64,000 nt of DNA. It comes from an uncultured Eubacteriales bacterium. GTDB taxonomy: Bacteria > Bacillota > Clostridia > Oscillospirales > Oscillospiraceae. The DNA lies in NCBI GenBank assembly GCA_900546075.1, contig URBH01000002.1, positions 15,263-79,262 of the forward strand, given 5' to 3'. Under the pieces are notes generated by a model. It did no database searches and was not told where the DNA came from. It worked only from the letters and a program-made list of their open reading frames with translations. Position 1 is the first letter of the stretch. Every line of letters starts with the position of its first letter. Position numbers and translations under genes: made by a program. Shown piece after piece: positions 1 to 20,427 of this stretch.

Positions 1-338
1 AATCACCAGCTTGGCGGCCTTGATGGTCATGGTGCCGTCCTTATAGCGGATCATGGCCTCACCCGGCGAACGGGCCAGGTCTTTGCGGTAAAGCCCTTTG
101 GAACCCTCCGGGGGCTTGTTCTTTTCGCTCCACGGTCGTCCCAGGACCACGCCCGCCTCCGTGCCGTTGGAGAGGTGAAGCACCATAACCATGTCGTCCA
201 CCTCCGGCATGAAATACTCCGATGAAATCAGGGGAATGGGGGCGGTCACGGCGTCGTCCTTTTCGTGGTACACCACGCGGACCGTGCCCGCGGCGTAATC
301 AACGGCTGAAATCTTTCCCAGCCGGATATTGTTTTCCA
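1..338 (-). CDS. phage baseplate-associated small protein (XkdR/gpV-like), 3' end cut by window edge
   Basis: Own translation of minus strand from ATG at 338: MENNIRLGKISAVDYAAGTVRVVYHEKDD...; lies immediately downstream of the late-control-D-like gene in PBSX-like order. Confidence 0.4.
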
Positions 339-354
339 TGCGTTCCTCCTCGCG

Positions 355-1353
355 TCATTCCTCCACCAGCGACATTTCCAGGTCCATGGTGTAGCCGCCG
401 GATCCGCTGACGCTGTGGGTAATGGTGTCAATGTAATACTTGCCGGACAGCTTCCCCAGGCCCACCACCTGGACGCATTGGGAGGCCACCAGGGAGGCGT
501 TTCCCACAATGGTGGCGGAAAGTTTGGTCTTTCCGTGGTTGGCCTTGGCCACCGCCGCCTTGATCTTCCGCTCCGCGTCGGCCTTGCTGTCGGCCTTGCC
601 GCTCTGCTTTAGGATCCGGCTGCCCTTGCCCACGGTCACCTTGATTTCCTTTTCCGTGGCCGGGCTGGTGTATGTGAACTCTCCGCCGGTGTAGGTTCCG
701 GCCTGATCCTGCTGCCATGACCAGGATTTCATACTGGACGGGGACAGCACCGCCGCCGCGCCCTTTTTCTTGTATGCCTCCCGGTCATACACCACGATCT
801 TTTGGGCGTAGACTTTCATGGCCAGCCCGTAGGTGTTGCACAGGTTCATGTAAAATTCACAGTCGGTTTGTTCCGATTGCTCCACGCTCTTGATCGTGAA
901 CGGGTCGCCCTCCACGTCCCAGGCCAGCGCGATCCCGGCGCGGCCTGCGATCTCGGTTCCGATCTCCTTTATGGTCACGTTTTCCCAGGTCTTTGTCCGC
1001 TGGGTGGTGGTGAAACTGCTGTCCAGCGGCGTGGAGATTGCGGAAATGCTCCCGGAAACCGGCCAGCCGGAAAAACTGAAACTGTCCACGATAAAGAAAC
1101 CGCACGGCAGGATCCGGTTGTCCCCGGAATACTGGCAGTTCAGCGCCCGGATCGTCGCGGCCAGGGTGTCACCGGCGACGGGGATCCATGCCCCCGTCCA
1201 CCGGCGATCCCGGTCTTGCAGCGTAATGTCCAGGCTGTCCGCCTCTCCGCTTGCCGGATCCGTGTATGAAATATCCGTCACGAAACCGGAAATTTCCGCC
1301 GTGGCTGCGGTTCCGTTGTAAATCAGGTCTACATACGCCCGCCGTGTATTCAT
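355..1353 (-). CDS. phage late control gene D-like / XkdQ-like tail protein
   Basis: 332 aa ORF located after tape measure and tail-protein-X genes; overall sequence character of gpD/XkdQ family. Confidence 0.55.
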   Translation of the reverse strand: MNTRRAYVDLIYNGTAATAEISGFVTDISYTDPASGEADSLDITLQDRDRRWTGAWIPVAGDTLAATIRALNCQYSGDNRILPCGFFIVDSFSFSGWPVSGSISAISTPLDSSFTTTQRTKTWENVTIKEIGTEIAGRAGIALAWDVEGDPFTIKSVEQSEQTDCEFYMNLCNTYGLAMKVYAQKIVVYDREAYKKKGAAAVLSPSSMKSWSWQQDQAGTYTGGEFTYTSPATEKEIKVTVGKGSRILKQSGKADSKADAERKIKAAVAKANHGKTKLSATIVGNASLVASQCVQVVGLGKLSGKYYIDTITHSVSGSGGYTMDLEMSLVEE

Positions 1354-1562
1354 ACCTTGCTCCTCCAGATCGGCAGGTCATTGGCCGCGGTCTGTTCCGG
1401 CGGGGCCGGGGTCTGGAGGACCACCCCGGCGTCAAACACGAACGTGTCCAGCAGCGGGAAATTGTTTTCCATCAGCCAGCCGGTGTATTCTTCGTCGCCG
1501 TACACCTCATAGGCGATTTTGTCCCATACGTCCCCCTGCTTGGTGGTGTAGGTGCTTTCCAT
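1350..1562 (-). CDS. phage tail protein X-like (LysM-like) small protein
   Basis: 70 aa, 4-nt overlap with downstream gene, directly after tape measure gene as in P2 gpX / PBSX xkdP position. Confidence 0.5.
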   Translation of the reverse strand: MESTYTTKQGDVWDKIAYEVYGDEEYTGWLMENNFPLLDTFVFDAGVVLQTPAPPEQTAANDLPIWRSKV

Positions 1563-1577
1563 GGTGTGGTCCTCCTC

Positions 1578-3785
1578 TTATGCCGGGCTGAATTGCTTGC
1601 GCTTCTCCTCGGCTTTCATCTGCCTATACAGTTTCTTGAACTCCGCGAAACTGATCCGCCCGGCCTCCTCGGCCTCCTCGCGGCTCGGCGTCCCGCCGTA
1701 GAAATTGAATACCGGGGAGAAAACGACGGTTTCACCGCCGCCGCCCGTTCCGCCGCCCGGTGTCGGCTTCGGCTTCGTCCATTCGTCCAGGAGGGCCGCC
1801 AGCTTGGACAGCGGCAGCACCGCCTCCGGCTCTCCGCCCTCACCGATCTGCGCCAGCGTGGGCGCCGTGGCAATACCACCGGCAGCCAGGGCGGGGATCG
1901 TCGGAATGTTAAAGCCCAGGGTTTTCCCGCCGACGCCCGGAACCCAGTCCGGGATTGTCACGGAAATGCTGTTGATCTTCTCCAGCACCCAGTTGATTGC
2001 GGAAATAACCCCGTTTATTGGGGCTTTCGCCAGGTTCACGATCATGCCAAACACGTTTCCGAAAATGGCCACGATATTGTCCCAGGCGGCGCTCCAGTTG
2101 CCTGCAAATACGTTCTGCACAAAGTCAATGATATTGGCAAAAATGGCCTTGACGTTTTCCCAGGCCGCCGAAACACTTTCCCACCACCCGCTCAAATAAG
2201 CGGACAGCAGGGGGAAATTAGACTGGAACGCAGAAACCAGGTTCGCCACGGCCTCGGAAACGCCGGTCTTGATGTTTCCCCATACCTCGGAGATCTTCGC
2301 GCCCAGTTCCGCAGCCTTGGCCTTGATCTTGTCCCAGTTCTTATAAATCAGGATCCCCGCCGCCACAGCCAGGCCGATGGCGGCCACAACTGCCAGCACG
2401 GGAAGATTTAGCGCCGTCATGGCGCCCGCCAGGGTAAAGGTGCCCGTGGCGCTTGCTGCGGTGACCACTTTATACACGGCCATAACTGCGTTGTAGGCGG
2501 TGATCGCCACTTTATACGCCTTGTAGGCCGCCACAGCGGTGGCAATACCCGCCGCCAGCGCCAGGATCAGGGTGCGGTGTTCCGAAATCCATTTCACCGC
2601 GGTTTCCGCCGCCGGAATGATGGTTCCGGTCATGTAGCTGCCGATCTTCTCCAGCGCCTCCGAAACCACCGGCAGGGCCGCCTCCGCGAACTCCCGCACA
2701 TACGGCAGAATGTTGGTGCCCAGCTGCGTCAAGAAATTGGCGCCCAGGTTTTTAATCATCTGAATGTCATATTTCAGGCTGTTGGTCTGCCGCTCAAAGG
2801 CGGTGTTTGCCGCGCCGGTGGCCTCGTACATTTCCGCCGTCTTGCTGGTCAGGTTTTCGGCCTGGTTGCCTGCCATAGCCAGCACCGCGGTTTGTGCCTC
2901 CACAGAGGAGAACAGGCCAGCAAACGCCAGTTCGTTGCCTCCCACAGCGTCCTTTAGGGCGTCCAGAGATCCCTGCAGGCCCTTGCTTTCAAGCAGCGCT
3001 TGGCCGCTTTCATAGCCCATGTTTTTAAGGGCAGCCTGCATATTCTTGGACGGGGAGAGGAACGCCTGCATTGTGGCTTTCATTTGCGTAACCACTTCCG
3101 CCGTGGAACCTGTAACGCCGGTCAGCGTGGCCATGGCGCCCCATAGCTGTTCTTGCTCCAGCCCCAGGGTACTGGCCAGGGGAATGACCTTTCCCATGCC
3201 TGCGGCCAGTTCCGGGAAAGAGGTTTGGCCCAGTCTTACGGTGGCAAATGCCAGATCCGCCGCCTGCTGCACCGCCTCCGCGGAGGTATCGCCGTAACCC
3301 TTGGTTACGGCAGAAAGTAGGTTGATACTGTCCGTCGTGGTCGCGTTTCCCGCCGCCGCGGATTTTGCCGCGGTTTCCAGAATGGCCGCGGCGTCTGCGC
3401 TGTCACCGAAAGCGGAAACCACCTGATACATTCCGTCCGTCAGGTCAGCCGTGGCCACGCCCGTGCGGTTGGAGATTTCCAGAACCTGATCCCCGATTTC
3501 CGCCGTTCGTGCGGCCACCTCTGCCTCCGTGCCGGTCAGCAGCGTGGAAACGTTGGCCAGCTGGGCCTCATACTCCGCCGCGGATTTCACCGCAGCGGTT
3601 CCCAGGGTCGCCACAGCGGTGGCGGCTGCTACCATGGCACCGGCAGCGATCTTTCCCGCGGTCTTTGCCGTTTTCCCCAGCGCAGCCAGGTTCTTGTCTG
3701 CGGTGCTGCAGGCGGTTTTCAGGGAACCGTCCACCTTGCCGCCGATTTTCAGCATTAACTCATACGTTTTATTTTTGCCTGCCAT
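1578..3785 (-). CDS. phage tail tape measure protein
   Basis: 735 aa, Ala/Gly-rich coiled-coil-like N-terminal region and TM helices, located between chaperone and gpX/gpD-like genes. Confidence 0.75.
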   Translation of the reverse strand: MAGKNKTYELMLKIGGKVDGSLKTACSTADKNLAALGKTAKTAGKIAAGAMVAAATAVATLGTAAVKSAAEYEAQLANVSTLLTGTEAEVAARTAEIGDQVLEISNRTGVATADLTDGMYQVVSAFGDSADAAAILETAAKSAAAGNATTTDSINLLSAVTKGYGDTSAEAVQQAADLAFATVRLGQTSFPELAAGMGKVIPLASTLGLEQEQLWGAMATLTGVTGSTAEVVTQMKATMQAFLSPSKNMQAALKNMGYESGQALLESKGLQGSLDALKDAVGGNELAFAGLFSSVEAQTAVLAMAGNQAENLTSKTAEMYEATGAANTAFERQTNSLKYDIQMIKNLGANFLTQLGTNILPYVREFAEAALPVVSEALEKIGSYMTGTIIPAAETAVKWISEHRTLILALAAGIATAVAAYKAYKVAITAYNAVMAVYKVVTAASATGTFTLAGAMTALNLPVLAVVAAIGLAVAAGILIYKNWDKIKAKAAELGAKISEVWGNIKTGVSEAVANLVSAFQSNFPLLSAYLSGWWESVSAAWENVKAIFANIIDFVQNVFAGNWSAAWDNIVAIFGNVFGMIVNLAKAPINGVISAINWVLEKINSISVTIPDWVPGVGGKTLGFNIPTIPALAAGGIATAPTLAQIGEGGEPEAVLPLSKLAALLDEWTKPKPTPGGGTGGGGETVVFSPVFNFYGGTPSREEAEEAGRISFAEFKKLYRQMKAEEKRKQFSPA

Positions 3786-3926
3786 GTTTTGCCACCTCCT
3801 CCGCGTACTGCGTCACCGTGTCCGCCAGTTCGTTCAAGTCCGAAACGGACAGGGCCAGAAGATAATCCAGCCCTGTCCGCAGTTGTATGGACAACCCGAC
3901 GCAGGCCCTGTTTATGACGGCGGGCG

Positions 3927-4301
3927 TTAGTTGTCCCCAGCCCCGCCGTAAAGAAAACCCACGACAATGCCTTTCAGCTTGATTGCCTCCTTTGCGGGGA
4001 GGCGCTCGAAAAACTCCAGCGGCAGGTGGGCGACGCGGGCCGCCATGAACTGGGCGTATTCCAGCGTCATTTCCACGGTTGCGGGGTTCGCCGCCGGGTT
4101 CTTCTTCGTCACGAAACGGCCCACGGCCTGCAGGTCTGCCGCCGTGGTGTCCTCCAGGCCGGACAGGTCCACCTCTGTGTACGTCTGCCCCTCAAAGGTG
4201 AAAGGCTTGTCCAGCTTCATAACCAGGGCGTTTTCCTCCGCCGCGGTGTTTTCGTCATTCTCCGCCAGCAGGGCGGTGTCCATTCTCTTTTCGTCGCTCA
4301 T
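3927..4301 (-). CDS. phage tail assembly chaperone (gpE/XkdN-like)
   Basis: 124 aa acidic protein between tube and tape-measure genes. Confidence 0.5.
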   Translation of the reverse strand: MSDEKRMDTALLAENDENTAAEENALVMKLDKPFTFEGQTYTEVDLSGLEDTTAADLQAVGRFVTKKNPAANPATVEMTLEYAQFMAARVAHLPLEFFERLPAKEAIKLKGIVVGFLYGGAGDN

Positions 4302-4302
4302 G

Positions 4303-4818
4303 TCAGCACATCTCCTTGATCTTGGCCAGAACGTCCACGCCGTTGACCTTGTAAACCTCGTTCAACTTGTCCAGTTCCACCACGGTCTTGCCGTCCACCT
4401 CAATGAGAATGTAAAGAGTGGTCAGCGTGATCTTAGTGTCCATGGAACTGCCTGCCTTGACCTTGCCGGTGGTCAGCTTTCCGCCGCGGCCACGAACCAC
4501 CACGCGCATGGGTCTGAACTCAATATCGCCCTCGGTATTGGTGGTCTGCTGGGCGCCGCGGATCTCCAGCTGCACGGCCTTGGTCATGTCCATCATATCG
4601 GCGGTTTCCTTGTCCAGCAGGCGGAACGGGATTTCCAGTTCCTGATTGCCGAAATAGCCCACGGTGGGGTCGTCGATCTCACCCAGGATCCCGGCGCCGG
4701 TCACGGTTTCGCTGGACGGCTCAAAGTCCGGCAGCGTCATTTCCTCACCGACACCCAGCAGGCGGTTTCCCTTGTTGTAGACGTTGTAACGGTTGATCTT
4801 AGTGGGGATCGTGTTCAT
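4303..4818 (-). CDS. phage tail tube protein (FII-like)
   Basis: 171 aa ORF immediately downstream of sheath gene. Confidence 0.6.
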   Translation of the reverse strand: MNTIPTKINRYNVYNKGNRLLGVGEEMTLPDFEPSSETVTGAGILGEIDDPTVGYFGNQELEIPFRLLDKETADMMDMTKAVQLEIRGAQQTTNTEGDIEFRPMRVVVRGRGGKLTTGKVKAGSSMDTKITLTTLYILIEVDGKTVVELDKLNEVYKVNGVDVLAKIKEMC

Positions 4819-4820
4819 CT

Positions 4821-6281
4821 TTATTCACCTCCGATTGCGCTTTCCAGGGCGTCCACGTCATACTCACGGATATTTTCGATATATTCCGCGGGAATGTACG
4901 GGGCCAGGTAGGTGTGTACGGTCAGGTGGCCGGCCAGCAGGTTGGTAACGGGGTTTTCGTCGCTGCGGAACTCCACGCGATAACCGGCGCAGTAGTCGCG
5001 GGCAACGTAGCCGTTGCCGATAATGTTCTGGCTGTCCACGATAGACTGGATCAGGCGCTTATTGCCCGGCTTGTCAACTTTCTGGAAATAAGTCTGAATG
5101 AAATTATTTCCGTCCCAGTCAAAGAAACGGCGCACGGCCCACCAGCGATCTTTCGGATCCGTGGTGGAGGGATAGGCCGCGGTGTTGTTGCCCCAGGACT
5201 TGAACCCGTTGGCGTTGATCGCGGTAATGACGCCGTTGGCGTTCAGCACGTCGTTGGCCTGCTGCTGATCCAGCGCCACCGTGGTGCCGTCTTTCAGAAC
5301 CGTGGCGGTGATCCGCAGGTCCTTATTGGACGGGCTTTCATAGGGCACATCTGCGTTGTTGGCGTCCGTGTAGGCCGTCAGGGCGGCAAACATGGCGGAG
5401 AAATAATATTTCTTCTCGCCCACGGCCACCATGGGCCACAGGGCCGCCGCATGGGCGGAACTGGCGCCCAGGGCTTCCTTGGCGCCCTTTACGCTGGTGT
5501 AAACCACCGCGCCGTCGCTGTCCGCGGAAATGTCCAAAAGGCAACTGCAATTAAAATTGCCGTTGATGTTCTCGGTCTTGGCCTGGAGGGCTGCCGCTAC
5601 GGTGGGGGTGTGGCTCCAGCCGGGTGCCAGGATCAGGCCGGGCACCATGCCCAGGGTGGGGTAAATCTGGCGGATCAGTTCCAGTCCGGTTTCCTTTCCC
5701 GTGGCAGCGTCCACGCCGCCCACAATGTCGGCAGCGGTCACGCCGGAGGGTTTCAGGCTGGTGCTGCTCACGGTCAGGCTGCTGGCCTCCTTGGCCGCCG
5801 TGGAAAGCAGCGTAATGGCCACGCTGCCGTCGTCCTCATGTGCCGCCTCGTAGTCGCTGCCGGCCACCAGGGTGGCGCTGCCGTTCTTCACGGCCAGGGT
5901 GTTCAGCAGCACATATTTCTTGTCATACAGCACCACGCCGTCCACAACGTCGCAGCTTTCCGCCTGGTTCTGCGTGACGTGGGCCGCCTTATTGGGATCC
6001 AGCACGTTCACCAGGATAATGGGCGCAACGTTGAAAACCTGGAAACAGGCGCTAATGCTCTGGCAAAGGGTGAAGTTCTCGAAATCGTCCGAATAGCCGA
6101 CAGCCTCCACAGCCTCCTTGTAGCTGTAAACCAGCTTGGGGGTGTTGACCGCCGCCGCGGGGTCTTTCGCCAGGTGAATGGGCGCCGTGCCGAAAATGAC
6201 CTGCAGGCCAGCGCTGCCCTGAATGGGTACGGTCAGGCTGGTGGCCTGCTCGGTGTTATATACACCGTGTTTGTATGCCAT
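4821..6281 (-). CDS. phage tail sheath protein
   Basis: 486 aa; C-terminal DRWWAVRRFFDWDGNNF... region typical of contractile sheath proteins. Confidence 0.8.
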   Translation of the reverse strand: MAYKHGVYNTEQATSLTVPIQGSAGLQVIFGTAPIHLAKDPAAAVNTPKLVYSYKEAVEAVGYSDDFENFTLCQSISACFQVFNVAPIILVNVLDPNKAAHVTQNQAESCDVVDGVVLYDKKYVLLNTLAVKNGSATLVAGSDYEAAHEDDGSVAITLLSTAAKEASSLTVSSTSLKPSGVTAADIVGGVDAATGKETGLELIRQIYPTLGMVPGLILAPGWSHTPTVAAALQAKTENINGNFNCSCLLDISADSDGAVVYTSVKGAKEALGASSAHAAALWPMVAVGEKKYYFSAMFAALTAYTDANNADVPYESPSNKDLRITATVLKDGTTVALDQQQANDVLNANGVITAINANGFKSWGNNTAAYPSTTDPKDRWWAVRRFFDWDGNNFIQTYFQKVDKPGNKRLIQSIVDSQNIIGNGYVARDYCAGYRVEFRSDENPVTNLLAGHLTVHTYLAPYIPAEYIENIREYDVDALESAIGGE

Positions 6282-6298
6282 GTTGTTCTACCTCCTGT

Positions 6299-6553
6299 TT
6301 AGTGTTTGACCTGTACCAGACGATACAGGCGGGAAATATGCCCCGTGCCGCTCCGCAGGTTCTTCATGGCCTCCGGTAACTGCTCCAGGGGCACCACCAG
6401 GCCCTCCATGGCCGGCTGCTTCACGATAGCCTCCGCCAGCGCGGTGGGGATCCCGTTGGTGTATGCGGTGTACTGCTTCGCCACGCCCGGAATGGACGGG
6501 CCGCAGTAAACCACAGTGGTGGCCTGTTCGGCCTTTTTGGGTTTCGCCATTAT
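6299..6553 (-). CDS. hypothetical phage protein (upstream of sheath)
   Basis: Start refined to internal MAKPKK; 4-nt overlap with upstream gene. Confidence 0.4.
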   Translation of the reverse strand: MMAKPKKAEQATTVVYCGPSIPGVAKQYTAYTNGIPTALAEAIVKQPAMEGLVVPLEQLPEAMKNLRSGTGHISRLYRLVQVKH

Positions 6554-7029
6554 GTTTCTGGCACCTCCTTGAAAATCGCCGGCGCGTAGAACGGCAGCCC
6601 CACGGCGGCGAAATAATACGGGTGTGTGTCCTCCTCCTGGGTCGCCCACCGGATCGGGTGCTGTGCTTCATAGCGGTTTGCCACGATCCCGTCACGTTCG
6701 TAATGCCTCACGATCTCGTTGACAATGTGGAGGGCGTCGCGGTAGCCCTGGCGGTTCGGGTCCGGGTCGCACACGCAAATGACCATGACCACGTTTACGG
6801 TCTGCCGTGCGTCCTGCGCCGTCACCTCTCCGTCCGAAAGTTTCACGGCCACATAAGGCTCCGGCGGCGCTTCCGCGTCGGTTTCTTCGTCGTCACCCTC
6901 ACGAATGGGGAGGCCCTGCGGGACGATTTTCACCGCCCGCTCGACGCCCAGGGAATTGGTCAGGGTATAGTGGGAAAAAAGCTGTTTCAGGTCCTCCACA
7001 ATGGCGTCCTGCAAAAACTCTTGTGTCAC
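6550..7029 (-). CDS. hypothetical phage protein, GTG start
   Basis: AAGGAGG lies 9 nt upstream of the GTG encoding VTQEFLQ; the longer ORF to 7065 has no RBS. Confidence 0.45.
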   Translation of the reverse strand: MTQEFLQDAIVEDLKQLFSHYTLTNSLGVERAVKIVPQGLPIREGDDEETDAEAPPEPYVAVKLSDGEVTAQDARQTVNVVMVICVCDPDPNRQGYRDALHIVNEIVRHYERDGIVANRYEAQHPIRWATQEEDTHPYYFAAVGLPFYAPAIFKEVPET

Positions 7030-7043
7030 GCGGTTGCGCCTCC

Positions 7044-7115
7044 TTGACTTGTTTCCGTTTGTCACTTATAATTGCGGTGTGGTAATAATCAGCATAATGT
7101 GGTAATAATCAGCAT
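7044..7115 (+). promoter_or_regulatory. sigma-A-like promoter (TTGACT-17-TATAAT) followed by two tandem 18-bp direct repeats TGTGGTAATAATCAGCAT (7078..7095, 7098..7115) = candidate operator
   Basis: Read directly from the sequence; the repeats lie between the -10 box and the RBS of the SWIM gene. Confidence 0.4.
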
Positions 7116-7129
7116 TGGAGGAAATAGAA

Positions 7130-7648
7130 ATGGGAAAGCCTAAAACTGTCATAACTGAAAACGGGGCCGTTTATCAGCTATCAGATCCCAGCGCCCTGCG
7201 GTTGGTGTATAGAATTGTTGGCGTGGCTTTGATCTTAATGGGGGCTGTGCTGACGTTGATTTCCCCCGCCGGTGTAGCTTTCGCGGCGCTCGGTTTGGCG
7301 CTTGTCTTTTGGTTGCCCAAAAAGATCCAGCCGGCAAAGAAATTTCTTCGCTTCACCGGTACGCCATGCGCCGGAAATTGCACGTTTGGGCATTGGGATC
7401 CCAAAGTACACACCGGGCAGGCGCAACTTGAACGCTTTGAAAAAGCTGTTCATCAGCCTATGGCCATACTGTCCTATAACGCCCAAAATGGTTTTGCGGA
7501 AATAAAGGGATCTGGTTCCGACACCTATATGACAAGCCTTGATGAATGTACTTGCCCCGATTTCGACAAACGGAGTAAACCGTGCAAGCACATATATTTC
7601 CTTGCCCTGCAAATGGGATATACAAGCGACGATTTTTATTCCTGCTGA
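7130..7648 (+). CDS. membrane-anchored SWIM zinc-finger protein
   Basis: GGAGG 8 nt upstream of ATG 7130; hydrophobic helices in residues ~30-65; C-terminal CxC-x(n)-CxH motif (CTCPDFDKRSKPCKH). Confidence 0.6.
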   Translation: MGKPKTVITENGAVYQLSDPSALRLVYRIVGVALILMGAVLTLISPAGVAFAALGLALVFWLPKKIQPAKKFLRFTGTPCAGNCTFGHWDPKVHTGQAQLERFEKAVHQPMAILSYNAQNGFAEIKGSGSDTYMTSLDECTCPDFDKRSKPCKHIYFLALQMGYTSDDFYSC

Positions 7649-7653
7649 TCTCC

Positions 7654-7681
7654 AGCGGCTCCTATATGGGGCCGCTTTTTC
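7654..7681. terminator. hairpin plus T-run between convergent genes (bidirectional terminator)
   Basis: AGCGGCTCC...GGGGCCGCTTTTT. Confidence 0.4.
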
Positions 7682-8267
7682 ATGCCCTTGCACCTGTCAG
7701 CTGCTCGATCCGCTTTCCGATTTCACGCTGCAGGGTTTCGTATGCCAGGGCCTCCGCCTCCGCTCTCACTTCCTCGTTTCCCATCATGTGGGGAACGGCA
7801 GGCGAAAGCAGCTTTTTGACGGGGAGGCGTTCCGCGCCGCGCCGCTGCACAATGGCGGTGTGCCCGGATCGGAACGTGGTAATAAACGCTTTCAGGCCGC
7901 CCGCCTCCAGCGGTTTCATGGCCCCGCTGTTCAGGACCTTTGCCGCCGCCGCGGCTGTGTCCGTGTTCGGCTGCGTCATAAAGTCCATAATGTCCCGCAT
8001 GGGGCCTTTGGCCAGCACGGCGGCCTCCAGGGTGGAGGCGCTGGCGGAAAGGATTTTGCTTTCTGATTGCAGCGCCTTTTTCTCTTTCAGCGCATACCGG
8101 CCTTTGCTGTCCTTTATGATTTGCCGGCGTACCTTTCTGGCGGTGCTGTTCAGGGCATTTTTCAGCACGTTGGGCGCCCCCAGCTGCTGGGGCAGCGTTT
8201 TCAGCTGCCGCATGACCCTGGCCAGTTCTTCGTCGGTGTCGATCCGCAAAATGCTTTGATCGCTCAC
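7680..8267 (-). CDS. putative phage neck/tail-completion protein (HK97 gp10-like?)
   Basis: 195 aa; ATGA overlap with upstream gene; same operon as the sheath-upstream genes. Confidence 0.35.
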   Translation of the reverse strand: MSDQSILRIDTDEELARVMRQLKTLPQQLGAPNVLKNALNSTARKVRRQIIKDSKGRYALKEKKALQSESKILSASASTLEAAVLAKGPMRDIMDFMTQPNTDTAAAAAKVLNSGAMKPLEAGGLKAFITTFRSGHTAIVQRRGAERLPVKKLLSPAVPHMMGNEEVRAEAEALAYETLQREIGKRIEQLTGARA

Positions 8268-8602
8268 GATCTCACCGCCTCCAGTTCAATGGCCAGCACT
8301 CCGGCCTCCTCGGTGCAGGTTTTCACCTTGTACGCCTTGCCGTCCAGCGTCAACACGACGCCCTGGGCGGGGCGTGGGCCAAAATCAGCCTTTGCCACAT
8401 AAACCAGGCGCCGGGCCTTGTATGTGCCCTCCGTCTGTGCGGCCATGATCTTGGCCTTGTCCCGCTCCAGCAGTTCGTTGTCGTCCACCACCGCGGCCAT
8501 TTCCTTACCGTTGACCGTGTGGGTGTCCGCGAACTCCAGGCAGTTCAGGAATGTGGTGGAAATGTCCGCCGCGATCTGTTCCTTGAACGTAGGGGCGCCC
8601 AT
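8264..8602 (-). CDS. putative phage head-tail connector-type small protein (Gp19-like?)
   Basis: 112 aa; TAATG overlap with the stop of the yitT-like gene. Confidence 0.35.
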   Translation of the reverse strand: MGAPTFKEQIAADISTTFLNCLEFADTHTVNGKEMAAVVDDNELLERDKAKIMAAQTEGTYKARRLVYVAKADFGPRPAQGVVLTLDGKAYKVKTCTEEAGVLAIELEAVRS

Positions 8603-9600
8603 TACTGGGCACCCCCGCCGTTATCCGCAGCAGGCGGCACAATGGCCGCCGCAGGGGTCTGGACGATAGCCGCCGCCAGGCGTTCCACGATCAGCGCCTT
8701 TGCAGCGCCGCGTGGGAGATCCACGCCCATGTCCTTGGCCAGCTTTTTCAGGTCGTCCTTGTTCATTTCTTCCAGCTGTGCAGGATCCAGGTGGCCCTCC
8801 ACCATGTCGGTGCTTTCACCGCTATGGTTGCCGTCGTGGTTCTCCTGGCTCTCCTGGGTGCCCTCTGCGGCGTCTGTTACCTCCTGGGTGTCCTGGGTGG
8901 TGTCGGCGTTCTCGGTGCCGTCCTGGCCGCCGTCAGCGTCCTGCGGGGGCATTGTGGCCTCCTCCACCGCGTCGTACTCCTTGGTAATGATCAGCGCCAC
9001 CTTGGAATAGTCGAACCGGTACACCACGGCGTCCAGCACCTTGCCCGTAACAAACACCGCCACGCCGGTATACAGCGCCTTGGTGATGTCCTGAAACACG
9101 ATGCCCGTCAGGACGGCCACCCCGGCGTCAAAGCACATGGAAATCTGTCCGATGGGAACATCCCGGTATTTGAGCTTCAGCAGCCGCACCACGATGTCCG
9201 AGCCGCCGGTGGAGGTGCCGCAGATGAACACCATGCCCAGCCCCAGCCCGCAGATCATGCCGCCGTAAAGGGCGCAGAGCAGCGAATCCATGGGCGGCAT
9301 CGCGACCTTGGCAAAAGCGTCGATCAGGATCGAGCTGAGAACCATTCCCAGCAGACTGCCGCAAAAGAACCGTCTGCCGATCTTCACACCGCCGAGGATA
9401 AACAGGGGCAAATTGATGATAATCGTCAGCACGCCCACGCTGCCGTAGCCCAGCAGCTCCACCGCCACCAGCGCAAGGCCGGAAATGCCGCCGGGGCTGA
9501 TCTCATTGGGTTGTAGGAACAGGGAAAAGCCCAGTGCGAAAATCGTGCTTCCCACAGCCGTCGCCAGAATCCAGCGGTAATCTTCCCAAATTTTGCGCAT
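8602..9600 (-). CDS. YitT-family (DUF161) membrane protein, truncated in the DUF2179 region and extended by an acidic low-complexity segment plus a Rho_N-like helix motif
   Basis: N-terminal 5-TM YitT-like region; the C-terminal ~110 aa is D/E/Q/T-rich then LEEMNKDDLKKLAKDMGVDL. Confidence 0.65.
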   Translation of the reverse strand: MRKIWEDYRWILATAVGSTIFALGFSLFLQPNEISPGGISGLALVAVELLGYGSVGVLTIIINLPLFILGGVKIGRRFFCGSLLGMVLSSILIDAFAKVAMPPMDSLLCALYGGMICGLGLGMVFICGTSTGGSDIVVRLLKLKYRDVPIGQISMCFDAGVAVLTGIVFQDITKALYTGVAVFVTGKVLDAVVYRFDYSKVALIITKEYDAVEEATMPPQDADGGQDGTENADTTQDTQEVTDAAEGTQESQENHDGNHSGESTDMVEGHLDPAQLEEMNKDDLKKLAKDMGVDLPRGAAKALIVERLAAAIVQTPAAAIVPPAADNGGGAQ

Positions 9601-9631: not shown

Positions 9632-11872
9632 TTACACCTCGAAGGTCTGCTGCTTTTCCGCCGAGTCCTCTTCTTTCAGCAGCGCCCCGGCGGAGGGGAT
9701 GGTCTTGGTGCGGTAGCGGCTTTCGTTGACGATGCCGCTCTGACTCAGCAGCACCGCGTCCCGCAGCGTCGCCTTCTTTTTCAGCGTCATCACCGCCACG
9801 CCTTGGGTATTCCGCGTGGTCTTGGGCAGAAGCTGCGCCGTGGAGAAGATTGCCGCCCGGCCGTCGGTGGAGTACACCGCCATCTGCTCATCCGTATCCA
9901 GCGCCACCACTCTAATAAGCGGACTTCTGTCGCTGTAGGCGCCGGTGAGTTTTTTCCGGTTGGTTTTGGTCTCATAGGCGGACAGGGGAACCTTCGCCGC
10001 CTTGCCGTTTTCAAAGAAGAACAGAACAAAGCCCTTGTAGTCCCCGCAGAACACCAGCGCCACCAGATTCTCTCCCGCCTCGAAGCCCAGCTTCTGGGGC
10101 AGGTAATCGCCCAACTGGGACGCCTTGCCGTCGTCGAAGTCGGAAAGGCGGGATTTGTAGCACTGATACCGGTCGGTAAACACCAGAAATTCCGCCCTGT
10201 TGGTGGTCTCCTGGGAGAAGGACAGGCTGTCGCCCTCCTTGAATTTCTGCTCGCCGCTCATTCGCAGGGACTGGGCGGTCATCTTTTTCAGATACCCCTC
10301 CTTGGAGACGAACACCGTCACGCCGTAATCCGGCACGTCGTCCTCTTCCTCGGGGGCAGTCTCCTGGGCGTCATAGAGAATCTCCGTCCGCCGGGGCTGA
10401 CCGAACTTGTCGGCCACCGCCTGCAGTTCCTTGATGATGACGTTTTTCAGCTTCCGGGGGCTGTTCAGCGTGTCTCTCAGATCGGCGATCTCCCCTTCCA
10501 GGTCGTCGATGGCACGGGTCTGCTTGAGGATGTATTCCTTGTTGATGTTGCGCAGCTTGATCTCCGCCACGTAATTCGCCTGAATCTCGTCAATGCCGAA
10601 GCCGATCATCAGGTTGGGTACGACCTCGCTTTCCAGCTCCGTCTCCCGGATGATGGAAATGGCTTTGTCGATGTCCAGCAAAATCCGCTCCAGACCCTTT
10701 AACAGGTGCAGGCGGTCTTCCTTCTTCTGAACCTGGAAGAAAATCCGGCGCTTGACGCAGTCCGTGCGCCAGGCCGTCCACTCGTCCAGAATCTCCCCCA
10801 CGCCCATCACCCGGGGCATTCCCGCGATGAGGATGTTGAAATTGCAGGGGAAGCTGTCCTGCAAGGGCGTCAGACGGAACAGCTTCTGCATCAGCTTCTC
10901 CGGGTCAACGCCCCGCTTCAGGTCGATGGTCAGCTTCAGGCCGCCCAAATCCGTCTCGTCCCGCATGTCGGAAATCTCTTTGATTTTCCCCGCCTTGATC
11001 AGCTCCGCCACCTTGTCCATGATGACTTCCGTGGCGGTGGTGTAGGGGATCTCCGTGATTTCAATGAGATTGCCGTCCTTGACGTAGCGCCATTTTGCCC
11101 GGAGCCGGAAGCTTCCACGGCCTGTGGCATAGATTTCCCGTGTGGCGGCCTCGTCAAACAGCAGCTCGCCGCCGGTGGAAAAATCCGGGCCGGGCAGGGT
11201 CTCCAGAATGTCGTGGTCGGGATTTTTCATCAGGGCAATGGCGGTGTCGCACACCTCCCGCAGGTTAAACGAGCAGATGTTGGACGCCATGCCCACGGCG
11301 ATGCCCTGGTTGGCAGAAACCAGCACGTTGGGGAACGTGGTGGGCAGCAGCGCAGGCTCCTTCATGGTGGCGTCGTAGTTGTCCACCATGTCCACGGTGT
11401 CGCTGTCGATGTCCTTGAACACCTCGGCGCAGATGGAATCCAGCTTGGCCTCGGTGTAACGGGCGGCGGCGTAGGCCATGTCCCGGGAGTACACCTTGCC
11501 GAAGTTGCCCTTGGAATCCACAAAGGGATGCAGCAGCGTCTCGTTGCCCTTGGCAAGACGCACCATGGTCTCATAGATGGCGGCGTCGCCGTGGGGGTTC
11601 AGGCGCATGGTCTGGCCGACGATGTTGGCGGACTTCGTCCGTCCGCCGGTGAGCAGACCCATTTTGTACATGGTATACAGTAGCTTGCGGTGAGACGGCT
11701 TAAAGCCGTCGATCTCGGGAATTGCCCGGGAAACGATCACCGACATGGCATAGGGCATGTAGTTTAATTCCAGCGTCTCGGAAATGGCCTGCTCCGTGGT
11801 GGAGCCGTGCAGACCCATAATGCCGTCGGTGTTTATCTTCTTTTTTTCAGGTTCTTGCTTTTTCCGTGCCAT
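9632..11872 (-). CDS. gyrA: DNA gyrase subunit A
   Basis: 746 aa; contains the AIPEIDGFKPSHRKLLY active-site region. Confidence 0.95.
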   Translation of the reverse strand: MARKKQEPEKKKINTDGIMGLHGSTTEQAISETLELNYMPYAMSVIVSRAIPEIDGFKPSHRKLLYTMYKMGLLTGGRTKSANIVGQTMRLNPHGDAAIYETMVRLAKGNETLLHPFVDSKGNFGKVYSRDMAYAAARYTEAKLDSICAEVFKDIDSDTVDMVDNYDATMKEPALLPTTFPNVLVSANQGIAVGMASNICSFNLREVCDTAIALMKNPDHDILETLPGPDFSTGGELLFDEAATREIYATGRGSFRLRAKWRYVKDGNLIEITEIPYTTATEVIMDKVAELIKAGKIKEISDMRDETDLGGLKLTIDLKRGVDPEKLMQKLFRLTPLQDSFPCNFNILIAGMPRVMGVGEILDEWTAWRTDCVKRRIFFQVQKKEDRLHLLKGLERILLDIDKAISIIRETELESEVVPNLMIGFGIDEIQANYVAEIKLRNINKEYILKQTRAIDDLEGEIADLRDTLNSPRKLKNVIIKELQAVADKFGQPRRTEILYDAQETAPEEEDDVPDYGVTVFVSKEGYLKKMTAQSLRMSGEQKFKEGDSLSFSQETTNRAEFLVFTDRYQCYKSRLSDFDDGKASQLGDYLPQKLGFEAGENLVALVFCGDYKGFVLFFFENGKAAKVPLSAYETKTNRKKLTGAYSDRSPLIRVVALDTDEQMAVYSTDGRAAIFSTAQLLPKTTRNTQGVAVMTLKKKATLRDAVLLSQSGIVNESRYRTKTIPSAGALLKEEDSAEKQQTFEV

Positions 11873-11917
11873 GGTTGGCTCCTTTACAAGATTTATGAAT
11901 TCGCTGTCTGGCCGGCC

Positions 11918-13894
11918 TTACGAAATATCCGCCAGTTCCAGATACTTTGCGCCGTTTTCCGCGATAAAGTTCTTCCGCTCCTGCAAGCCGTCGCCCAGGA
12001 GGAAGTCAAAGTAATGCGCCGTGCGCTCCGCGTCCTCCGGCATGACCTTGATGAGGCGGCGGGTCTGAGGGTTCATGGTGGTCATCCACATCATCTCCGG
12101 GTCGTTTTCGCCGAGACCTTTGGAGCGTTGGATGGTGATCTTTTTGCCCTCCAATTCCTTGAGTATCTTCGTCTTCTCCTGCTCGTTGTAGGCGAACCAG
12201 GTCTTGTCCTTGCAGGTGATCTCAAACAGCGGCGATTCCGCGATATACACGTACCCGTCCCGGATCAGCGTCGGACACAGGCGGTAAAGCATGGTCAATA
12301 TCAGCGTCCGGATCTGGAAGCCGTCCACGTCGGCATCCGTACAGATGACCACCTTGCTCCAGCGCAGCTGAGAAAGGTCGAAGGACGACAGTTCCTTAGC
12401 TTTCTTGCCCTGCACCTCCACGCCGCAGCCCAAGACCTTCATCAGGTCGGTGATGATGGGCGAGGCGAAAATCTTGCCGTAATCCGCCTTCAGGCAGTTG
12501 AGGATTTTGCCCCGAACCGGCATGATGCCCTGAAATTCCGCGTCCCGGCTGAGTTTGACGCTGCCCAGAGCGGAATCGCCCTCCACGATATACAGCTCCC
12601 GCACCGAAGCGTCCCGGCTGCGGCAGTCCACGAATTTCTGCACCCGGTTGGCAATGTCGATGGAGCCGGAGAGCTTCTTTTTCACGCTGGACTTGGTCTT
12701 CTCGGCGGATTCCCGGGCGCGCTTGTTCACCAGAATCTGCTCCGACGCCTTGTCGGCCTCCTGCTTGTTCTCGATGAACCAGACCTGCAGCTGCTCCTTG
12801 AAAAAGGCAGTCATGGCGTCCTGGGTGAATTTGCTGTTGACGCTTTTTTTCGTCTGGTTTTCAAAGCAGCCGATGGTGGAGAAGCAGTTGGTCACCAGCA
12901 CCAGAGAGTCCTGAATGTCCTGGAAAATGATCTTATTCTCGTTTTTGGTGTATTTGTTATTGTCCCGGAGGTACTTGTCGAAGGCCGCGGTAAAGCCGGA
13001 GCGAACCGCCTTGTCCGGGCTTCCGCCGTATTCCAGCCAGGAGGAATTGTGGTAATACTCGATATGGCTGATTTGCTTGGAGAAGCAGAAGGAGGCCGTG
13101 ATCTTCAGCTTCATTTCCGGGCGGTTTTCCGCGTCACGACCCCGGCGCTCGGCTTCCCAGTAGACGGGCATGGTGAAGGCGTTGTCCCCCACCAGCTCCT
13201 CGATATACTGGCGGATGCCGTCGGCATAACAAAATTCCTCCGTCTCGAATTTGCCGCCCACCTGGTTGCGGAAGCGGAAGGTGATGCCCTTGTTCACCAC
13301 CGCCTGACGGCGCAGCACGTCCCGGTAGTATTCCACGGGGATGTTGATGTCGGTGAACACCAGCTTGTCCGGCTTCCAGTGAAAGCAGGAGCCGGTCTTT
13401 TTCCGGTCGGTGGGCTCCTTTTTCAGGCCGCCCTTGTTTCTGCCCTTTTCAAAGTGCAGATCGTACCGGTAGCCGTCCCGGCGGATGGTGGCGTCAAAAA
13501 ACTCCGAAGCGTACTGGGTAGCGCAGGAGCCAAGGCCGTTCAGGCCCAGGGAATACTCATAGTTTTCCCCGTTTTCCCCGTATTTGCCGCCGGCGTACAT
13601 TTCGCAGAACACCAGCTCCCAGTTGTAGCGCTTTTCCTTTTCGTTGTAGTCCACGGGGCAGCCCCGGCCGAAATCCTCCACCTCCACGCTTAAGTCTTCG
13701 TAGCGGGTGACGATGATGGTATCGCCGTAGCCTTCCCGCGCCTCGTCGATGGCGTTGGAGAGAATTTCAAACACCGCGTGCTTGCAGCCCTCCAGATCGT
13801 CCGAGCCGAAGATGACAGCCGGACGCTTACGCACCCGATCCTCGCCCTTGAGCATGGAGATACTGGAATTTCCGTATTGTTCCTGTTTTTTCAT
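11918..13894 (-). CDS. gyrB: DNA gyrase subunit B
   Basis: GHKL ATPase and TOPRIM motifs; start taken at MKKQEQY (alternative start 13945). Confidence 0.95.
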   Translation of the reverse strand: MKKQEQYGNSSISMLKGEDRVRKRPAVIFGSDDLEGCKHAVFEILSNAIDEAREGYGDTIIVTRYEDLSVEVEDFGRGCPVDYNEKEKRYNWELVFCEMYAGGKYGENGENYEYSLGLNGLGSCATQYASEFFDATIRRDGYRYDLHFEKGRNKGGLKKEPTDRKKTGSCFHWKPDKLVFTDINIPVEYYRDVLRRQAVVNKGITFRFRNQVGGKFETEEFCYADGIRQYIEELVGDNAFTMPVYWEAERRGRDAENRPEMKLKITASFCFSKQISHIEYYHNSSWLEYGGSPDKAVRSGFTAAFDKYLRDNNKYTKNENKIIFQDIQDSLVLVTNCFSTIGCFENQTKKSVNSKFTQDAMTAFFKEQLQVWFIENKQEADKASEQILVNKRARESAEKTKSSVKKKLSGSIDIANRVQKFVDCRSRDASVRELYIVEGDSALGSVKLSRDAEFQGIMPVRGKILNCLKADYGKIFASPIITDLMKVLGCGVEVQGKKAKELSSFDLSQLRWSKVVICTDADVDGFQIRTLILTMLYRLCPTLIRDGYVYIAESPLFEITCKDKTWFAYNEQEKTKILKELEGKKITIQRSKGLGENDPEMMWMTTMNPQTRRLIKVMPEDAERTAHYFDFLLGDGLQERKNFIAENGAKYLELADIS

Positions 13895-14021: not shown

Positions 14022-14138
14022 AGGATTCATACTATTTCTCGATAAAATGGTTAACACCATTTTATCCTGCGAATCCTTCGCAGGCCGCCGGTGGCGGCGA
14101 GAAATGTATGGACTTACGTTTTTTGCGGCTACGCCGCT

Positions 14139-14190
14139 GGCTGCTGAAACAGCAGCCGAATAAAACGGTTTTTAACCGTTTTATTGAAAA
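14139..14190 (-). terminator. two tandem hairpins downstream of the histidine phosphatase gene
   Basis: GGCTGCTGAAACAGCAGCC and AATAAAACGGTTTTTAACCGTTTTATT. Confidence 0.35.
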
Positions 14191-14202
14191 CTAGTATCAT
14201 CG

Positions 14203-16053: not shown

Positions 16054-16839
16054 TTACTTTCCAAGCTCTTTGTTCTTCTTATAGGTATCAATCACACAGT
16101 CCATTGCCGCGCCGCGGAAGCCGTGGTTTTCCAGCGTCTGAACACCGACAATGGTGCTGCCCCCGGGAGAACACACCGCATCCTTCAATGCGCCGGGGTG
16201 CTGACGGGTGGCAAGCAGCATTTCCGCCGAACCCGCCATGGTCATGGCGGCGTATTCCATTGCCTTGGCTCTGGGAAGGCCGCAGGCCACCGCGCCGTCG
16301 GCCAGTGCCTCCACGAACATGTACAGAAAGGCCGGGCCGCTGCCGGACAGAGCGCTCGCCGCGTCGATCAGCCGCTCCTCCAGTGCGTCCAGCAGACCGC
16401 AGAAGCGCATGTCCTCCCGCCAGTCCTTCAGCGTTTCCTCCGCCACAAGCGCGTTGCGGCAATAGGGAATCACGCCTTTGCCGATGGCCGTGGGGGTGTT
16501 GGGCATGATGCGGATGACGGGCAGCTCCGCCGCGGCAAGCTGCTCCAATCTTGCAATTTCCATGCCCGCCGCCATGGTGATGATCAGCGGCTTGCGCTTT
16601 CCCAGAACCTTTTGCAGCGGAGACAGCACCTCCTGCACCATATGGGGCTTCACTGCGATAAAGATCCGGTCACACCGGGCGGCGACGGTTTCCGCGTCGG
16701 AATAGACGATGCCCAGCTCCTCGGCAAACGCCTTTGCCTTGCCGGAACGGTCGGACACCATGATTTCCTTTGTGGCCTTGCTCAGGGCTTTGGCAATGGC
16801 GCCGCCCATGTTGCCGCAGCCGATAAATCCGTACTTCAT
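16054..16839 (-). CDS. proC: pyrroline-5-carboxylate reductase
   Basis: MKYGFIGCGNMGGAI Rossmann N-terminus; operon with proBA. Confidence 0.85.
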   Translation of the reverse strand: MKYGFIGCGNMGGAIAKALSKATKEIMVSDRSGKAKAFAEELGIVYSDAETVAARCDRIFIAVKPHMVQEVLSPLQKVLGKRKPLIITMAAGMEIARLEQLAAAELPVIRIMPNTPTAIGKGVIPYCRNALVAEETLKDWREDMRFCGLLDALEERLIDAASALSGSGPAFLYMFVEALADGAVACGLPRAKAMEYAAMTMAGSAEMLLATRQHPGALKDAVCSPGGSTIVGVQTLENHGFRGAAMDCVIDTYKKNKELGK

Positions 16840-16850
16840 ACGTTTCCTCC

Positions 16851-18089: not shown

Positions 18090-18856
18090 AAGCGTTCCTC
18101 CGAAAACGTGGTGCCAACGGCCTTTCCTTCCAGAATGTCATAGAGATTTCCCGGATTATTTCCGTTGGCAATGACCATTTTGCAGCCGCAGCCCAGGCAG
18201 ATTTCGGCGGCATGGAGCTTCGTGACCATTCCCCCGGTTCCCTGGGCAGAACTGCTGATCCCGGCAATTTCCCGGATATGGTCGTCAATTCCGGCGACGT
18301 GGTGCAATAGCTTCGCCTCCGGGTGGGTGTGTGGGTCGGCGGTGTACAGGCCGTCGATATCGGAAAGGAGAATCAGCATTTCGGCGTGGACGCTCCTTGC
18401 CACGATGGCGGCGAGGGTATCGTTGTCGCCGATGACGATCTCATCGGTGGCGACGGTGTCGTTCTCATTGATGATAGGCAGCGCCCCCAGCTCCAGAAGC
18501 CTGTTCAGGGTGTTGGTGAAGTTGAAGCGCCGGGTATTGCTGGCAGTATCGTCGCCGGTGATCAGCAGCTGCGCCACCGTGTGGTGGTACTCGCTGAACA
18601 GCTTGTCATATACATACATCAGCTCGCACTGCCCAACAGCGGCGGCGGCCTGTTTGGACGGGATGTCCTTTGGCTTTTCCCGCAGTCCCAGCTTCCCCAC
18701 CCCCATGCCGATGGCGCCGGAGGAAACCAGGATCAGCTCATGTCCGGCATTTTTGATATCGCTCATGATCTCGCAAAGCTGCTCCACCCGGCGGATATTT
18801 AAGTGGCCGGTGGGATGCGCCAGAGTCGATGTGCCGATTTTGATTACAATGCGCAT
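18086..18856 (-). CDS. proB: glutamate 5-kinase (short form, no PUA domain)
   Basis: [12 protein letters not shown]...; amino-acid kinase fold; TTTACT-17-TATAAT promoter upstream. Confidence 0.9.
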
Positions 18857-18985
18857 TTGCGTTCTCCCCTAAAACAATTTCGTTCATTATATCACTTTAG
18901 CATAATGAAGTAAATAGTCTGAAAGCAAGTTTCCGGTAAATGTTTTTACATATAAAATACTGACGGGCAGCATTTAGGGGAGCGT

Positions 18986-19163: not shown

Positions 19164-19207
19164 GAGATGATCGCATTGAGCCCCGTCTATTCTGCCGCCC
19201 GTCAGGG

Positions 19208-20362: not shown

Positions 20363-20427
20363 GGAATAACCACCTCATAGAAAGGATTCCCACAGTCCAT
20401 AGTATGAACTGTGGGAATGGTATTGAA

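Follow-up and report, generated by a model that had tools for sequence, protein, structure and literature searches.

The locus described here raises the question of how a run of contractile-tail genes, with no head or packaging genes beside it, comes to lie directly behind a chromosomal topoisomerase operon in an uncultured gut bacterium. The stretch of DNA that was analyzed (termed here the window) comprises 64,000 nucleotides of contig URBH01000002.1 (assembly GCA_900546075.1, positions 15,263 to 79,262) from an uncultured member of the Oscillospiraceae, and the tail genes fill its positions 1-8602. A first-pass annotation, made from the letters of the sequence, interpreted them as a long-resident, domesticated tail-only element. 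The comparisons reported below contradict this: window positions 1-8975 match an intact gut phage without a single mismatch in 8,975, the breaks fall within two genes, near-identical strains carry an intact yitT gene at this place, and the junction between phage and host DNA is unique. The explanation favored here, with somewhat better than even confidence, is that a prophage was truncated very recently, by deletion; what the window holds is, by this explanation, a freshly grounded prophage and not an evolved tailocin.

The evidence that carries this explanation comes from intact phages (loci and contigs used for comparison are designated here by L numbers). Aligned by blastn, window positions 1-8975 and intact phage contig L242 show 0 mismatches in 8,975 bp (100.000% identity), and a second intact copy, L246, differs from the window at one base; both L242 and L246 carry the full head module. 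Over 7.1 kb, identity between the window and intact copies is 98.0-100%, as against 97.5-100% between one intact copy and another, and all of the tail open reading frames (ORFs) are equal in length to those of the intact phages, with amino-acid identities of 97-100%. Judged from these alignments, the window segment sits within the diversity of the intact copies and shows no decay at all.

The parent phage is a temperate, contractile-tailed phage of ~43 kb that is common in human-gut Oscillospiraceae, where it accounts for thousands of collection blocks; MT835543.1 (L017), a 43,080-bp phage scaffold from human feces, spans its whole genome. The two ends of this scaffold are adjacent in prophage contigs, with an 81-bp gap, just upstream of terS, an arrangement that fits a cos-ended linear genome. 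Sequence-identical copies of the window's 332-residue gpD-like protein occur in 3,914 collection blocks, and of its 112-residue protein in 8,196 (with full phage context in 24 of the 24 contigs read). From a total of 70 contigs read, some of which recur between look-ups, 24 places with an identical gpD-like, 112-residue or tape-measure protein were detailed: all 24 encode the protease, capsid and cement proteins, and portal and terminase genes are present wherever the locus reaches that far. The eight gpD-identical contigs shown in detail have the same genes at 98-99% nucleotide identity, in every case inside a complete phage. Those detailed gpD and tape-measure loci that reach downstream go on to gpU, baseplate J, P2-I, a 902-residue fiber and a reverse transcriptase, and the gpD-identical ones end with a CHAP/LysM lysin.

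The gene order of the parent phage thus reads as follows. A DUF1492 gene, a DUF1064 gene, a GpA-type large terminase and a lambda-type portal (Phage_portal_2) lie upstream, as found in the look-ups with the 112-residue and tape-measure proteins; then come the prohead protease (Peptidase_S78), the Phage_capsid_4 major capsid protein, Phage_cement_2 and a 167-residue gene, which in the intact phage stands between the cement gene and the 112-residue gene; then the run seen in the window; and after it gpU, a W-like wedge protein, Baseplate_J, Tail_P2_I, the 902-residue Big_3 fiber, the reverse transcriptase (phrog_1423) and the lysin. Window genes were assigned by model searches against Pfam and PHROG (with NCBIfam for the topoisomerase and the transposase), and the part of this order present between position 1 and the first intact phage gene past the junction is:

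1-339, minus strand: V-like baseplate spike (OB-fold), N-terminal ~113 codons of a 147-residue gene (Phage_base_V, weak; PHROG baseplate assembly protein)
355-1353, minus strand: gpD/YqbQ-like tail or baseplate hub protein, 332 residues (phrog_52, 1e-83; Pfam YQBQ and Phage_GPD)
1350-1562, minus strand: tail X-like small protein, 70 residues (Phage_tail_X, phrog_46)
1578-3785, minus strand: tape measure protein, 735 residues (PhageMin_Tail, 2e-24; phrog_991, 2e-89)
3755-4301, minus strand: tail assembly chaperone (3927-4301) with a putative -1 frameshift extension (Phage_TAC_7, phrog_3140)
4303-4818, minus strand: tail tube protein, FII-type, 171 residues (Phage_tube, 1e-38)
4821-6281, minus strand: tail sheath protein, 486 residues (phrog_23, 6e-75)
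6299-7029, minus strand: two small structural genes, of 83 residues (6299-6550, phrog_4089) and 159 residues (6550-7029, phrog_2581, 'virion structural protein')
7044-7676, plus strand: moron-like cassette with a SWIM zinc finger (ORF 7115-7648, promoter-like site 7044-7072, terminator-like hairpin 7654-7676)
7680-8267, minus strand: Neck1 or tail completion protein, 195 residues (phrog_27, 6e-18)
8264-8602, minus strand: 112-residue protein, the first intact phage gene past the junction (phrog_2551, 4e-33, with the PHROG label 'minor tail protein')

The searches confirm a co-oriented, minus-strand contractile-tail module filling 1-8602, as the first-pass annotation had proposed, apart from the SWIM ORF, which lies on the plus strand. 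From the 112-residue gene to the V-like spike, by way of the neck, sheath, tube, chaperone, tape measure and hub genes, the run is there with its ORFs intact. Within the window the module is nevertheless not complete, contrary to its description as complete-looking: the window edge at position 1 cuts the V-like gene, whose fragment is 100% identical to L001 11015-11353; Baseplate J/I, fiber and lysis genes are known from relatives only. The 83-, 159- and 112-residue ORFs match PHROG families labeled phage virion, minor tail or unassigned, and the first two have the same lengths as in intact phages. Pfam sheath models give no match to 4821-6281 at E<=0.01, the assignment being that of phrog_23; the protein is an exact copy of WP_187015716.1 ('MULTISPECIES: phage tail sheath family protein [Oscillospiraceae]'), a record that includes Dysosmobacter segnis. 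In the chaperone gene a slippery heptamer, G_GGT_TTT, occupies 3960-3954, the -1 frame is open up to the start of the tape measure gene, and a listed ORF at 3755-3967 overlaps the gene; the chaperone is thus predicted to have the usual G/GT-type -1 frameshift. A minus-strand ORF at 7235-7693, which overlaps the SWIM ORF on the other strand, was rejected as spurious. Neither blastn nor tblastn with the genes of the parent phage found any head or packaging homologue across the 64-kb window, except the 3' part of the 167-residue gene, which upholds the first-pass statement that such genes are absent between the tail cluster and gyrA.

How phage and host DNA are joined is best understood from the other end of the run, where four features meet:

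8602-8975, minus strand: 3' ~124 codons of the 167-residue phage gene, supplying the C-terminal end of the chimera 8602-9600 (blastn alignment with L001 and L242, tblastn, PHROG)
8955-8975, no strand: recombination junction (three-way alignment, homology end points, phage variants with T)
8976-9600, minus strand: 5' ~208 codons of host yitT, membrane domain only (YitT_membrane, 1.5e-53, residues 11-215)
9632-13894, minus strand: type IIA topoisomerase, subunits A (9632-11872) and B (11918-13894), the host operon that now precedes the phage fragment (promoter-like site 13963-13935)

Similarity to the phage extends up to 8975, midway through the 167-residue gene, and similarity to host loci sets in at 8955, within yitT. 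Host and phage share an exact microhomology of 12 bp, ACGACGCGGTGG, at 8964-8975, followed by a mismatch at 8963 and by a further shared GGAGGCCA at 8955-8962; the 12 bp are thus embedded in a GC-rich match of 20 positions in 21. In the alignment the host side reads ...GGAGT-ACGACGCGGTGG-C-GGAGGCCA-TCGG and the phage side ...GACCG-ACGACGCGGTGG-A-GGAGGCCA-CAATG, and phage variants with T at the polymorphic site occur (L167, L170 and L242). ORF 8602-9600 is consequently a chimera, in which codons 1 to ~212 of host yitT (the last four of them within the shared 12 bp) run on into the last ~124 codons of the phage gene. Because it is a chimera, the stop/start overlap (ATGA) at 8602 is the phage's native overlap between the 167- and 112-residue genes; the translational coupling (TAATG) that had been taken to tie the first tail gene to a yitT-like host gene is therefore internal to the phage.

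The chimeric ORF lacks DUF2179, which is present together with YitT_membrane in the intact, 287-residue orthologues of L009-L013 and L016. The closest host loci, L012 and L016, are 99.98% identical to the window over 5-13 kb; strains with such flanks have an intact yitT, then a transglutaminase-core gene and, where the contig extends (in L016, and likewise in L009-L011), two HTH genes. No phage DNA was found in the yitT stretch of these strains, nor in any of the topoisomerase-yitT loci from 80 GTDB species-representative genomes.

There are arguments on both sides as to whether this junction exists in a cell. At the join, the 5' portion of a host gene runs into the 3' portion of a phage gene on the same strand, a topology that would result from deletion between directly oriented sites and not from inversion; to either side of it the contig comprises no less than 9 kb of phage and 55 kb of host DNA. 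The competing explanation is an assembly or library chimera: a host strain with an intact yitT and a complete phage residing elsewhere (in this host, in another, or free) would have been misjoined at the 20/21-bp similarity, no cell then containing a headless element. The identity of the phage side to an intact phage, with zero divergence, is what such a misjoin would give, and the host genus is known mainly from metagenome-assembled genomes. However, the exactly shared sequence is 12 bp, too short for collapse in a de Bruijn graph with k>=21 and below any k in usual use, so that k-mer collapse cannot create the join; arms of the lengths just given would normally require that there be no better-covered competing path; and the partner is a temperate phage of the same bacterial family, in deletion orientation.

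Several further observations weigh against a truncation in the cell. The junction and the fusion protein, of 332 residues, are known from a single NCBI/ENA contig (79,549 bp), and a 36-mer spanning the junction has 0 matches in the GTDB species representatives (185,579 species), in JGI metagenomes and in IMG/VR (as a positive control, the equivalent 36-mer of the intact phage is found in 17 IMG/VR contigs). In public metagenome assemblies the same YitT N-terminus is also fused, in frame, to four other and unrelated partners (part of a sigma-70 factor, a domain resembling an F420 ligase, a member of the isopropylmalate/isocitrate dehydrogenase family, PF00180, and a penicillin-binding-protein transpeptidase), in contigs that are short or of low coverage. 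Two of the four break no more than 6 codons from the window junction, their similarity to yitT being lost within ~10 bp of it; both are SPAdes contigs, of 2x and 11.7x coverage, whose downstream parts are not syntenic with any relative. Since other YitT chimeras break there, artefactual or unexplained joins do occur at this spot, and the ends of L240 and L241 at a strain polymorphism a few bases upstream mark it as a known trouble point of assembly graphs. No intact prophage copy among those examined adjoins yitT: the upstream host flanks of 13 of 14 long prophage contigs have no match to the window or to yitT loci, and the remaining one (L230) has a weak, ~71% match to two unrelated GTDB loci. 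Finally, baseplate, fiber, lysis and transposase genes beyond position 1 are predicted and not shown for this genome, as is the geometry of a simple deletion. With both sides weighed, the junction is probably real; a chimera is the less likely account, but one to be taken seriously.

The polymorphism at which L240 and L241 end is TAC/TAG; in L239 the TAG variant is a nonsense codon at position 209, which splits YitT at its domain boundary. (Comparison entries for the region of yitT codons 176-218, window ~8955-9075, are L237, L238, L239, L240 and L241, and P0002, P0003, P0011 and P0046.) This GC-rich, domain-boundary spot may be either prone to recombination or a source of trouble in assembly or library construction.

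If the junction is real, the truncation proposed here would have proceeded as follows. A prophage copy would have lain downstream of yitT, in the same orientation, in a Faecousia-like uncultured member of the Oscillospiraceae, and a deletion between the 12-bp microhomology in yitT (codons ~209-212) and the same 12 bp in the phage's 167-residue gene would have taken out the remaining 3' portion of yitT, the host DNA between it and the prophage, and ~21 kb at the left of the prophage (the distance, in the parent phage, from the left end to codon 44 of that gene). The lost left part would have comprised the early genes, the DUF1492 gene upstream of terS, cos, terminase, portal, protease, capsid and cement. 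Positions 1-8975 correspond to an internal-to-right part of the phage: they begin at codon ~44 of the 167-residue gene, take in the neck, sheath, tube, chaperone, tape measure, tail X and gpD genes, and break off within the V-like spike gene; the in-frame YitT'-'167aa fusion would have arisen by chance. We infer, in other words, a junction that exists in the cell and a simple deletion that produced it. The segment has the features of a defective remnant--it is co-linear with an intact phage, lacks essential modules and breaks inside genes--and the breakpoint is not at an end of the element, the true prophage ends being at L017 ~13816 (left) and ~13819 (right). That an insertion took place near yitT is plausible because the parent phage inserts at many sites.

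The evidence for such promiscuous insertion is found at the ends of the parent phage. The last gene before the right end, at L017 13862-14962 and ~46 bp from that end, is directed outward and encodes a 366-residue IS30-family transposase (NCBIfam transpos_IS30, 2e-65, above cutoff; Pfam HTH_38 and rve), relatives of which, at 42-99% identity, are encoded at the ends of 27-45-kb IMG/VR contigs. At the left end, GAAAATGCTATCAATAAGAG..., phage homology starts at the same base in 13 of 14 long contigs (in L207 it starts ~150 bp further in), and the 14 host flanks on this side have no detectable similarity to one another. After the right end, ...CCTATTGACATTTGCC, a different non-phage sequence follows in each of 11 contigs, and in ten further sequences the right end is abutted to the left with a 3-nucleotide spacer that varies between copies, as in the junctions of circles. 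The two ends, GAAAATGCTATCAATAAGAG and CCTATTGACATTTGCC, carry imperfect inverted repeats of ~30 bp (L017 13753-14962; L101-L164; L171-L230). About 25 junctions with non-phage DNA were examined, each with a different flank; in L106 and L120 an extra insert of ~865 bp is found at the end junction. At the left end a 228-residue protein is encoded that matches nothing in Pfam, NCBIfam or PHROG, and its comparison with the transposase by BLASTP gives E=2.7; an IS30 ancestry for it was rejected, there being no detectable similarity.

A transposase in the parent phage opens the way to a third explanation, in which the junction is real yet arose through a more complex event--an illegitimate insertion during abortive infection or a transposase-associated rearrangement--after which the remainder of the phage might persist at another site in the genome. 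The IS30 family is known to cause rearrangements, and the failure to find an intact copy beside yitT is compatible with such an event. However, rearrangements of this kind put an end of the element at the junction, whereas the present break, which has microhomology, falls ~21 kb inside the phage, and the 55 kb of host DNA contain no further piece of the phage; an event of this sort is therefore unlikely. Two related candidates were rejected: a junction caused by a Mu-like transposition end, the break lying ~21 kb inside the phage, and an aberrant-excision circle of the specialized-transduction type, the attached host DNA (at least 55 kb) exceeding a capsid capacity of 43 kb.

By its features, the parent phage matches the IScream phages, IS30-transposase-mobilized prophages of gut Clostridia (Wirbel, Hickey et al., Nature 2025, PMC12823448). 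It has an outward-directed IS30-family transposase as the last gene at one end, many insertion sites, circles with abutted ends and high prevalence in the human gut, and it occurs in several Oscillospiraceae; circles of this kind and a low specificity for the target are typical of IS30-type elements. The placement is one of shared features, the parent phage not having been matched to any phage named in that work (PMC12823448). A difference is that IS30 at both ends, the second ORF being inward-directed and often truncated, is part of the IScream definition and is not seen in the sequence of the parent phage; the window, moreover, holds an internal tail fragment with neither a transposase nor an end of the element. 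The element ends, 3-nucleotide spacers and many insertion sites described above provide independent corroboration of the IS30-type mobilization proposed for IScream phages (PMC12823448).

In the intact phage, the tail genes are part of a long operon of co-oriented structural genes, which starts at terS with the DUF1492 gene immediately upstream; the tail gene products would build a contractile tail, the length of which is set by the tape measure and which is completed by chaperone, sheath, tube, hub and spike. The DUF1492 family has been associated with late-gene control in phages, and its member here may be the late regulator of the parent phage. Genes of the parent for the head, for packaging and for replication, its early genes and its possible late regulator are all missing from the window, and the first-pass view that this is a remnant and not an intact prophage was in this respect correct; such a remnant would be unable to make virions. 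Having lost their own late promoter and regulator, the tail genes would be transcribed only by read-through from the topoisomerase-yitT' operon: the promoter-like site of that operon, at 13963-13935, is the sole one placed to drive them, and no convincing terminator-like site separates it, on the minus strand, from the tail genes.

A further explanation is a domesticated R-type tailocin, i.e., a tail-only locus long resident in the chromosome, maintained by selection and producing a bacteriocin-like particle, and some points speak for it. The tails of myophages assemble independently of heads; all of the tail ORFs are intact, the window has no head genes, and the cluster is co-oriented with the host operon upstream, with no strong terminator-like site between them. 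Yet a locus of that kind should have diverged from phages, and this one is identical to an intact phage at every nucleotide; it is absent both from strains with 99.98% identical flanks and from the related loci of the 80 species representatives, and no independent second occurrence was found. Its breakpoints fall inside genes, it has kept head-tail joining genes and an unrelated moron, and the DUF1492 gene and any promoter upstream of terS are deleted with no counterpart in the window. Because the segment has 0 substitutions, is unique and retains its neck genes and moron, there is no sign of selection for a tail-only function, and a domesticated tailocin is the least credible of the explanations considered. 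Only a little less improbable is the idea that a real junction marks the birth of a tailocin, with headless tails made by read-through behind a constitutively expressed topoisomerase-yitT' operon; if true, the locus would show the domestication of a tailocin at its first step, in an uncultured gut member of the Oscillospiraceae.

Comparison with known systems places the element more precisely. R-type tailocins (R-pyocins, diffocins and xenorhabdicins) have a fixed chromosomal position across strains, have diverged from phages, have regulators and a lysis cassette of their own and lack head-tail joining genes. The window element shares with them contractile sheath, tube, tape-measure and baseplate genes with no capsid, portal or terminase nearby, but it is neither fixed in position across strains nor diverged from phages, and it has kept head-tail joining genes; any lysis genes would lie beyond position 1. 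With defective or grounded prophages (Bobay et al. 2014 PNAS; PMC6379469) it shares the loss of essential modules, deletion ends within genes and co-linearity with an intact relative; typical remnants, however, are diverged and often conserved between strains, whereas this one has zero substitutions and was seen once. Hence it represents at most the first step of the prophage-remnant pathway. With P2-type tails (PBSX being the other comparison made in the first-pass annotation), the tail shares both the order sheath-tube-chaperone(-1 frameshift)-tape measure-X-D-V-U-W-J-I-fiber and the Pfam families Phage_tube FII, Phage_tail_X, GPD, P2_GpU, Baseplate_J and Tail_P2_I. The parent phage differs from P2 in having a sheath outside the Pfam models, in its head (Phage_capsid_4, Peptidase_S78 and a GpA-type terminase) and in integrating by a DDE transposase instead of a tyrosine integrase.

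As found, the locus is of minor importance, being either a further case of a truncated prophage or an error of assembly, derived from a class of phages described in 2025. A real junction would date the earliest step in the grounding of a prophage, in which a 12-bp microhomology deletion also destroys the DUF2179 domain of YitT. More generally, it serves as a caution: host-like GC content and an apparent translational coupling made a phage fragment of zero divergence look like a domesticated tailocin, and a single comparison with public contigs exposed its identity. The GC match that had been noted is itself real, the local value of ~0.59-0.61 being that of the adjacent host DNA, but it is uninformative as to residence time, because the free phage has the same GC content as its Oscillospiraceae hosts.

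Two further regions of the parent phage may be noted. The first is the SWIM cassette, set among the neck genes, whose ORF (7115-7648) has a CxC...CxH motif, a sigma-70-like promoter matching at 11 of 12 positions and a strong terminator-like hairpin, and whose equivalents in relatives have a precomputed PF04434 SWIM match. In L002, L003, L004 and L006 other sequence takes the place of this stretch, and among phage copies otherwise 98-99% identical the slot holds alleles of 140, 172, 211 or 225 residues, as a variable moron slot would. The second (L001 13894-19358 and equivalents in L002-L008 and L242-L251) surrounds the reverse transcriptase, of 374 residues: the 902-residue Big_3 fiber and a 152-residue protein flank it on one side and a CBM_5_12 protein of 203-227 residues on the other, which is, by gene order alone, the layout of a diversity-generating retroelement.

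The topoisomerase-yitT locus itself belongs to an uncultured Oscillospiraceae lineage of the GTDB genus Faecousia, the closest species representative of which has ~95.8% nucleotide identity. The two topoisomerase genes had been named gyrBA; they do encode a type IIA B/A pair, which nonetheless reaches none of the NCBIfam equivalog cutoffs for gyrase or topoisomerase IV, the best A-subunit match being to the generic 'DNA topoisomerase (ATP-hydrolyzing)' subfamily. A single weak GyrA C-terminal repeat is detected in the A subunit, which thus has almost no beta-pinwheel repeats, and the pair follows proB-proA-proC, an aldo-keto reductase and a histidine phosphatase instead of standing in a dnaA-recF or dnaA-gyrB context. 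It is a divergent type IIA paralogue conserved across Faecousia-like genomes. Rfam and tRNA scans of 1-16 kb gave no matches.

A dispersed repeat of ~174 bp, with copies 96-99% identical (window 14026-14199, L009 15736-15909 and L016 8189-8358), lies between the topoisomerase B and histidine-phosphatase genes, with a second copy past the HTH genes in relatives. It is near this second copy that the contigs of L010 and L016 terminate; the idea that relatives' contigs end downstream of yitT because of the phage was rejected, these ends aligning with the repeat and the contigs containing no phage DNA. Beyond yitT, the transglutaminase gene and the HTH genes, L009 carries a different integrated element (16675-20925) with a tyrosine integrase (HTH domain), an AAA_14 protein and a Fic/RhuM protein; because of this, the neighborhood downstream of yitT may be regarded as a general landing zone for mobile DNA.

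Host GC content is ~0.58-0.61, and it falls from 0.59 to 0.52 at ~34-35 kb. That the whole of 1-34 kb might be foreign, as this drop could suggest, was rejected, 9-34 kb being conserved host DNA and the low-GC half a conjugative element, marked by the drop. The element (window ~34,900-64,000, GC 0.51-0.53), which has greA and a gene for a class II aminoacyl-tRNA synthetase upstream of it, encodes a VirB4/TraC-like ATPase, a TraG/VirD4 coupling protein, a SpaA-type surface protein of 1,300 residues and an NlpC/P60 hydrolase that is sequence-identical in 5,541 collection blocks; a DUF3268 RNA motif (Rfam RF02966, 98 bits) is located at 61390-61512.

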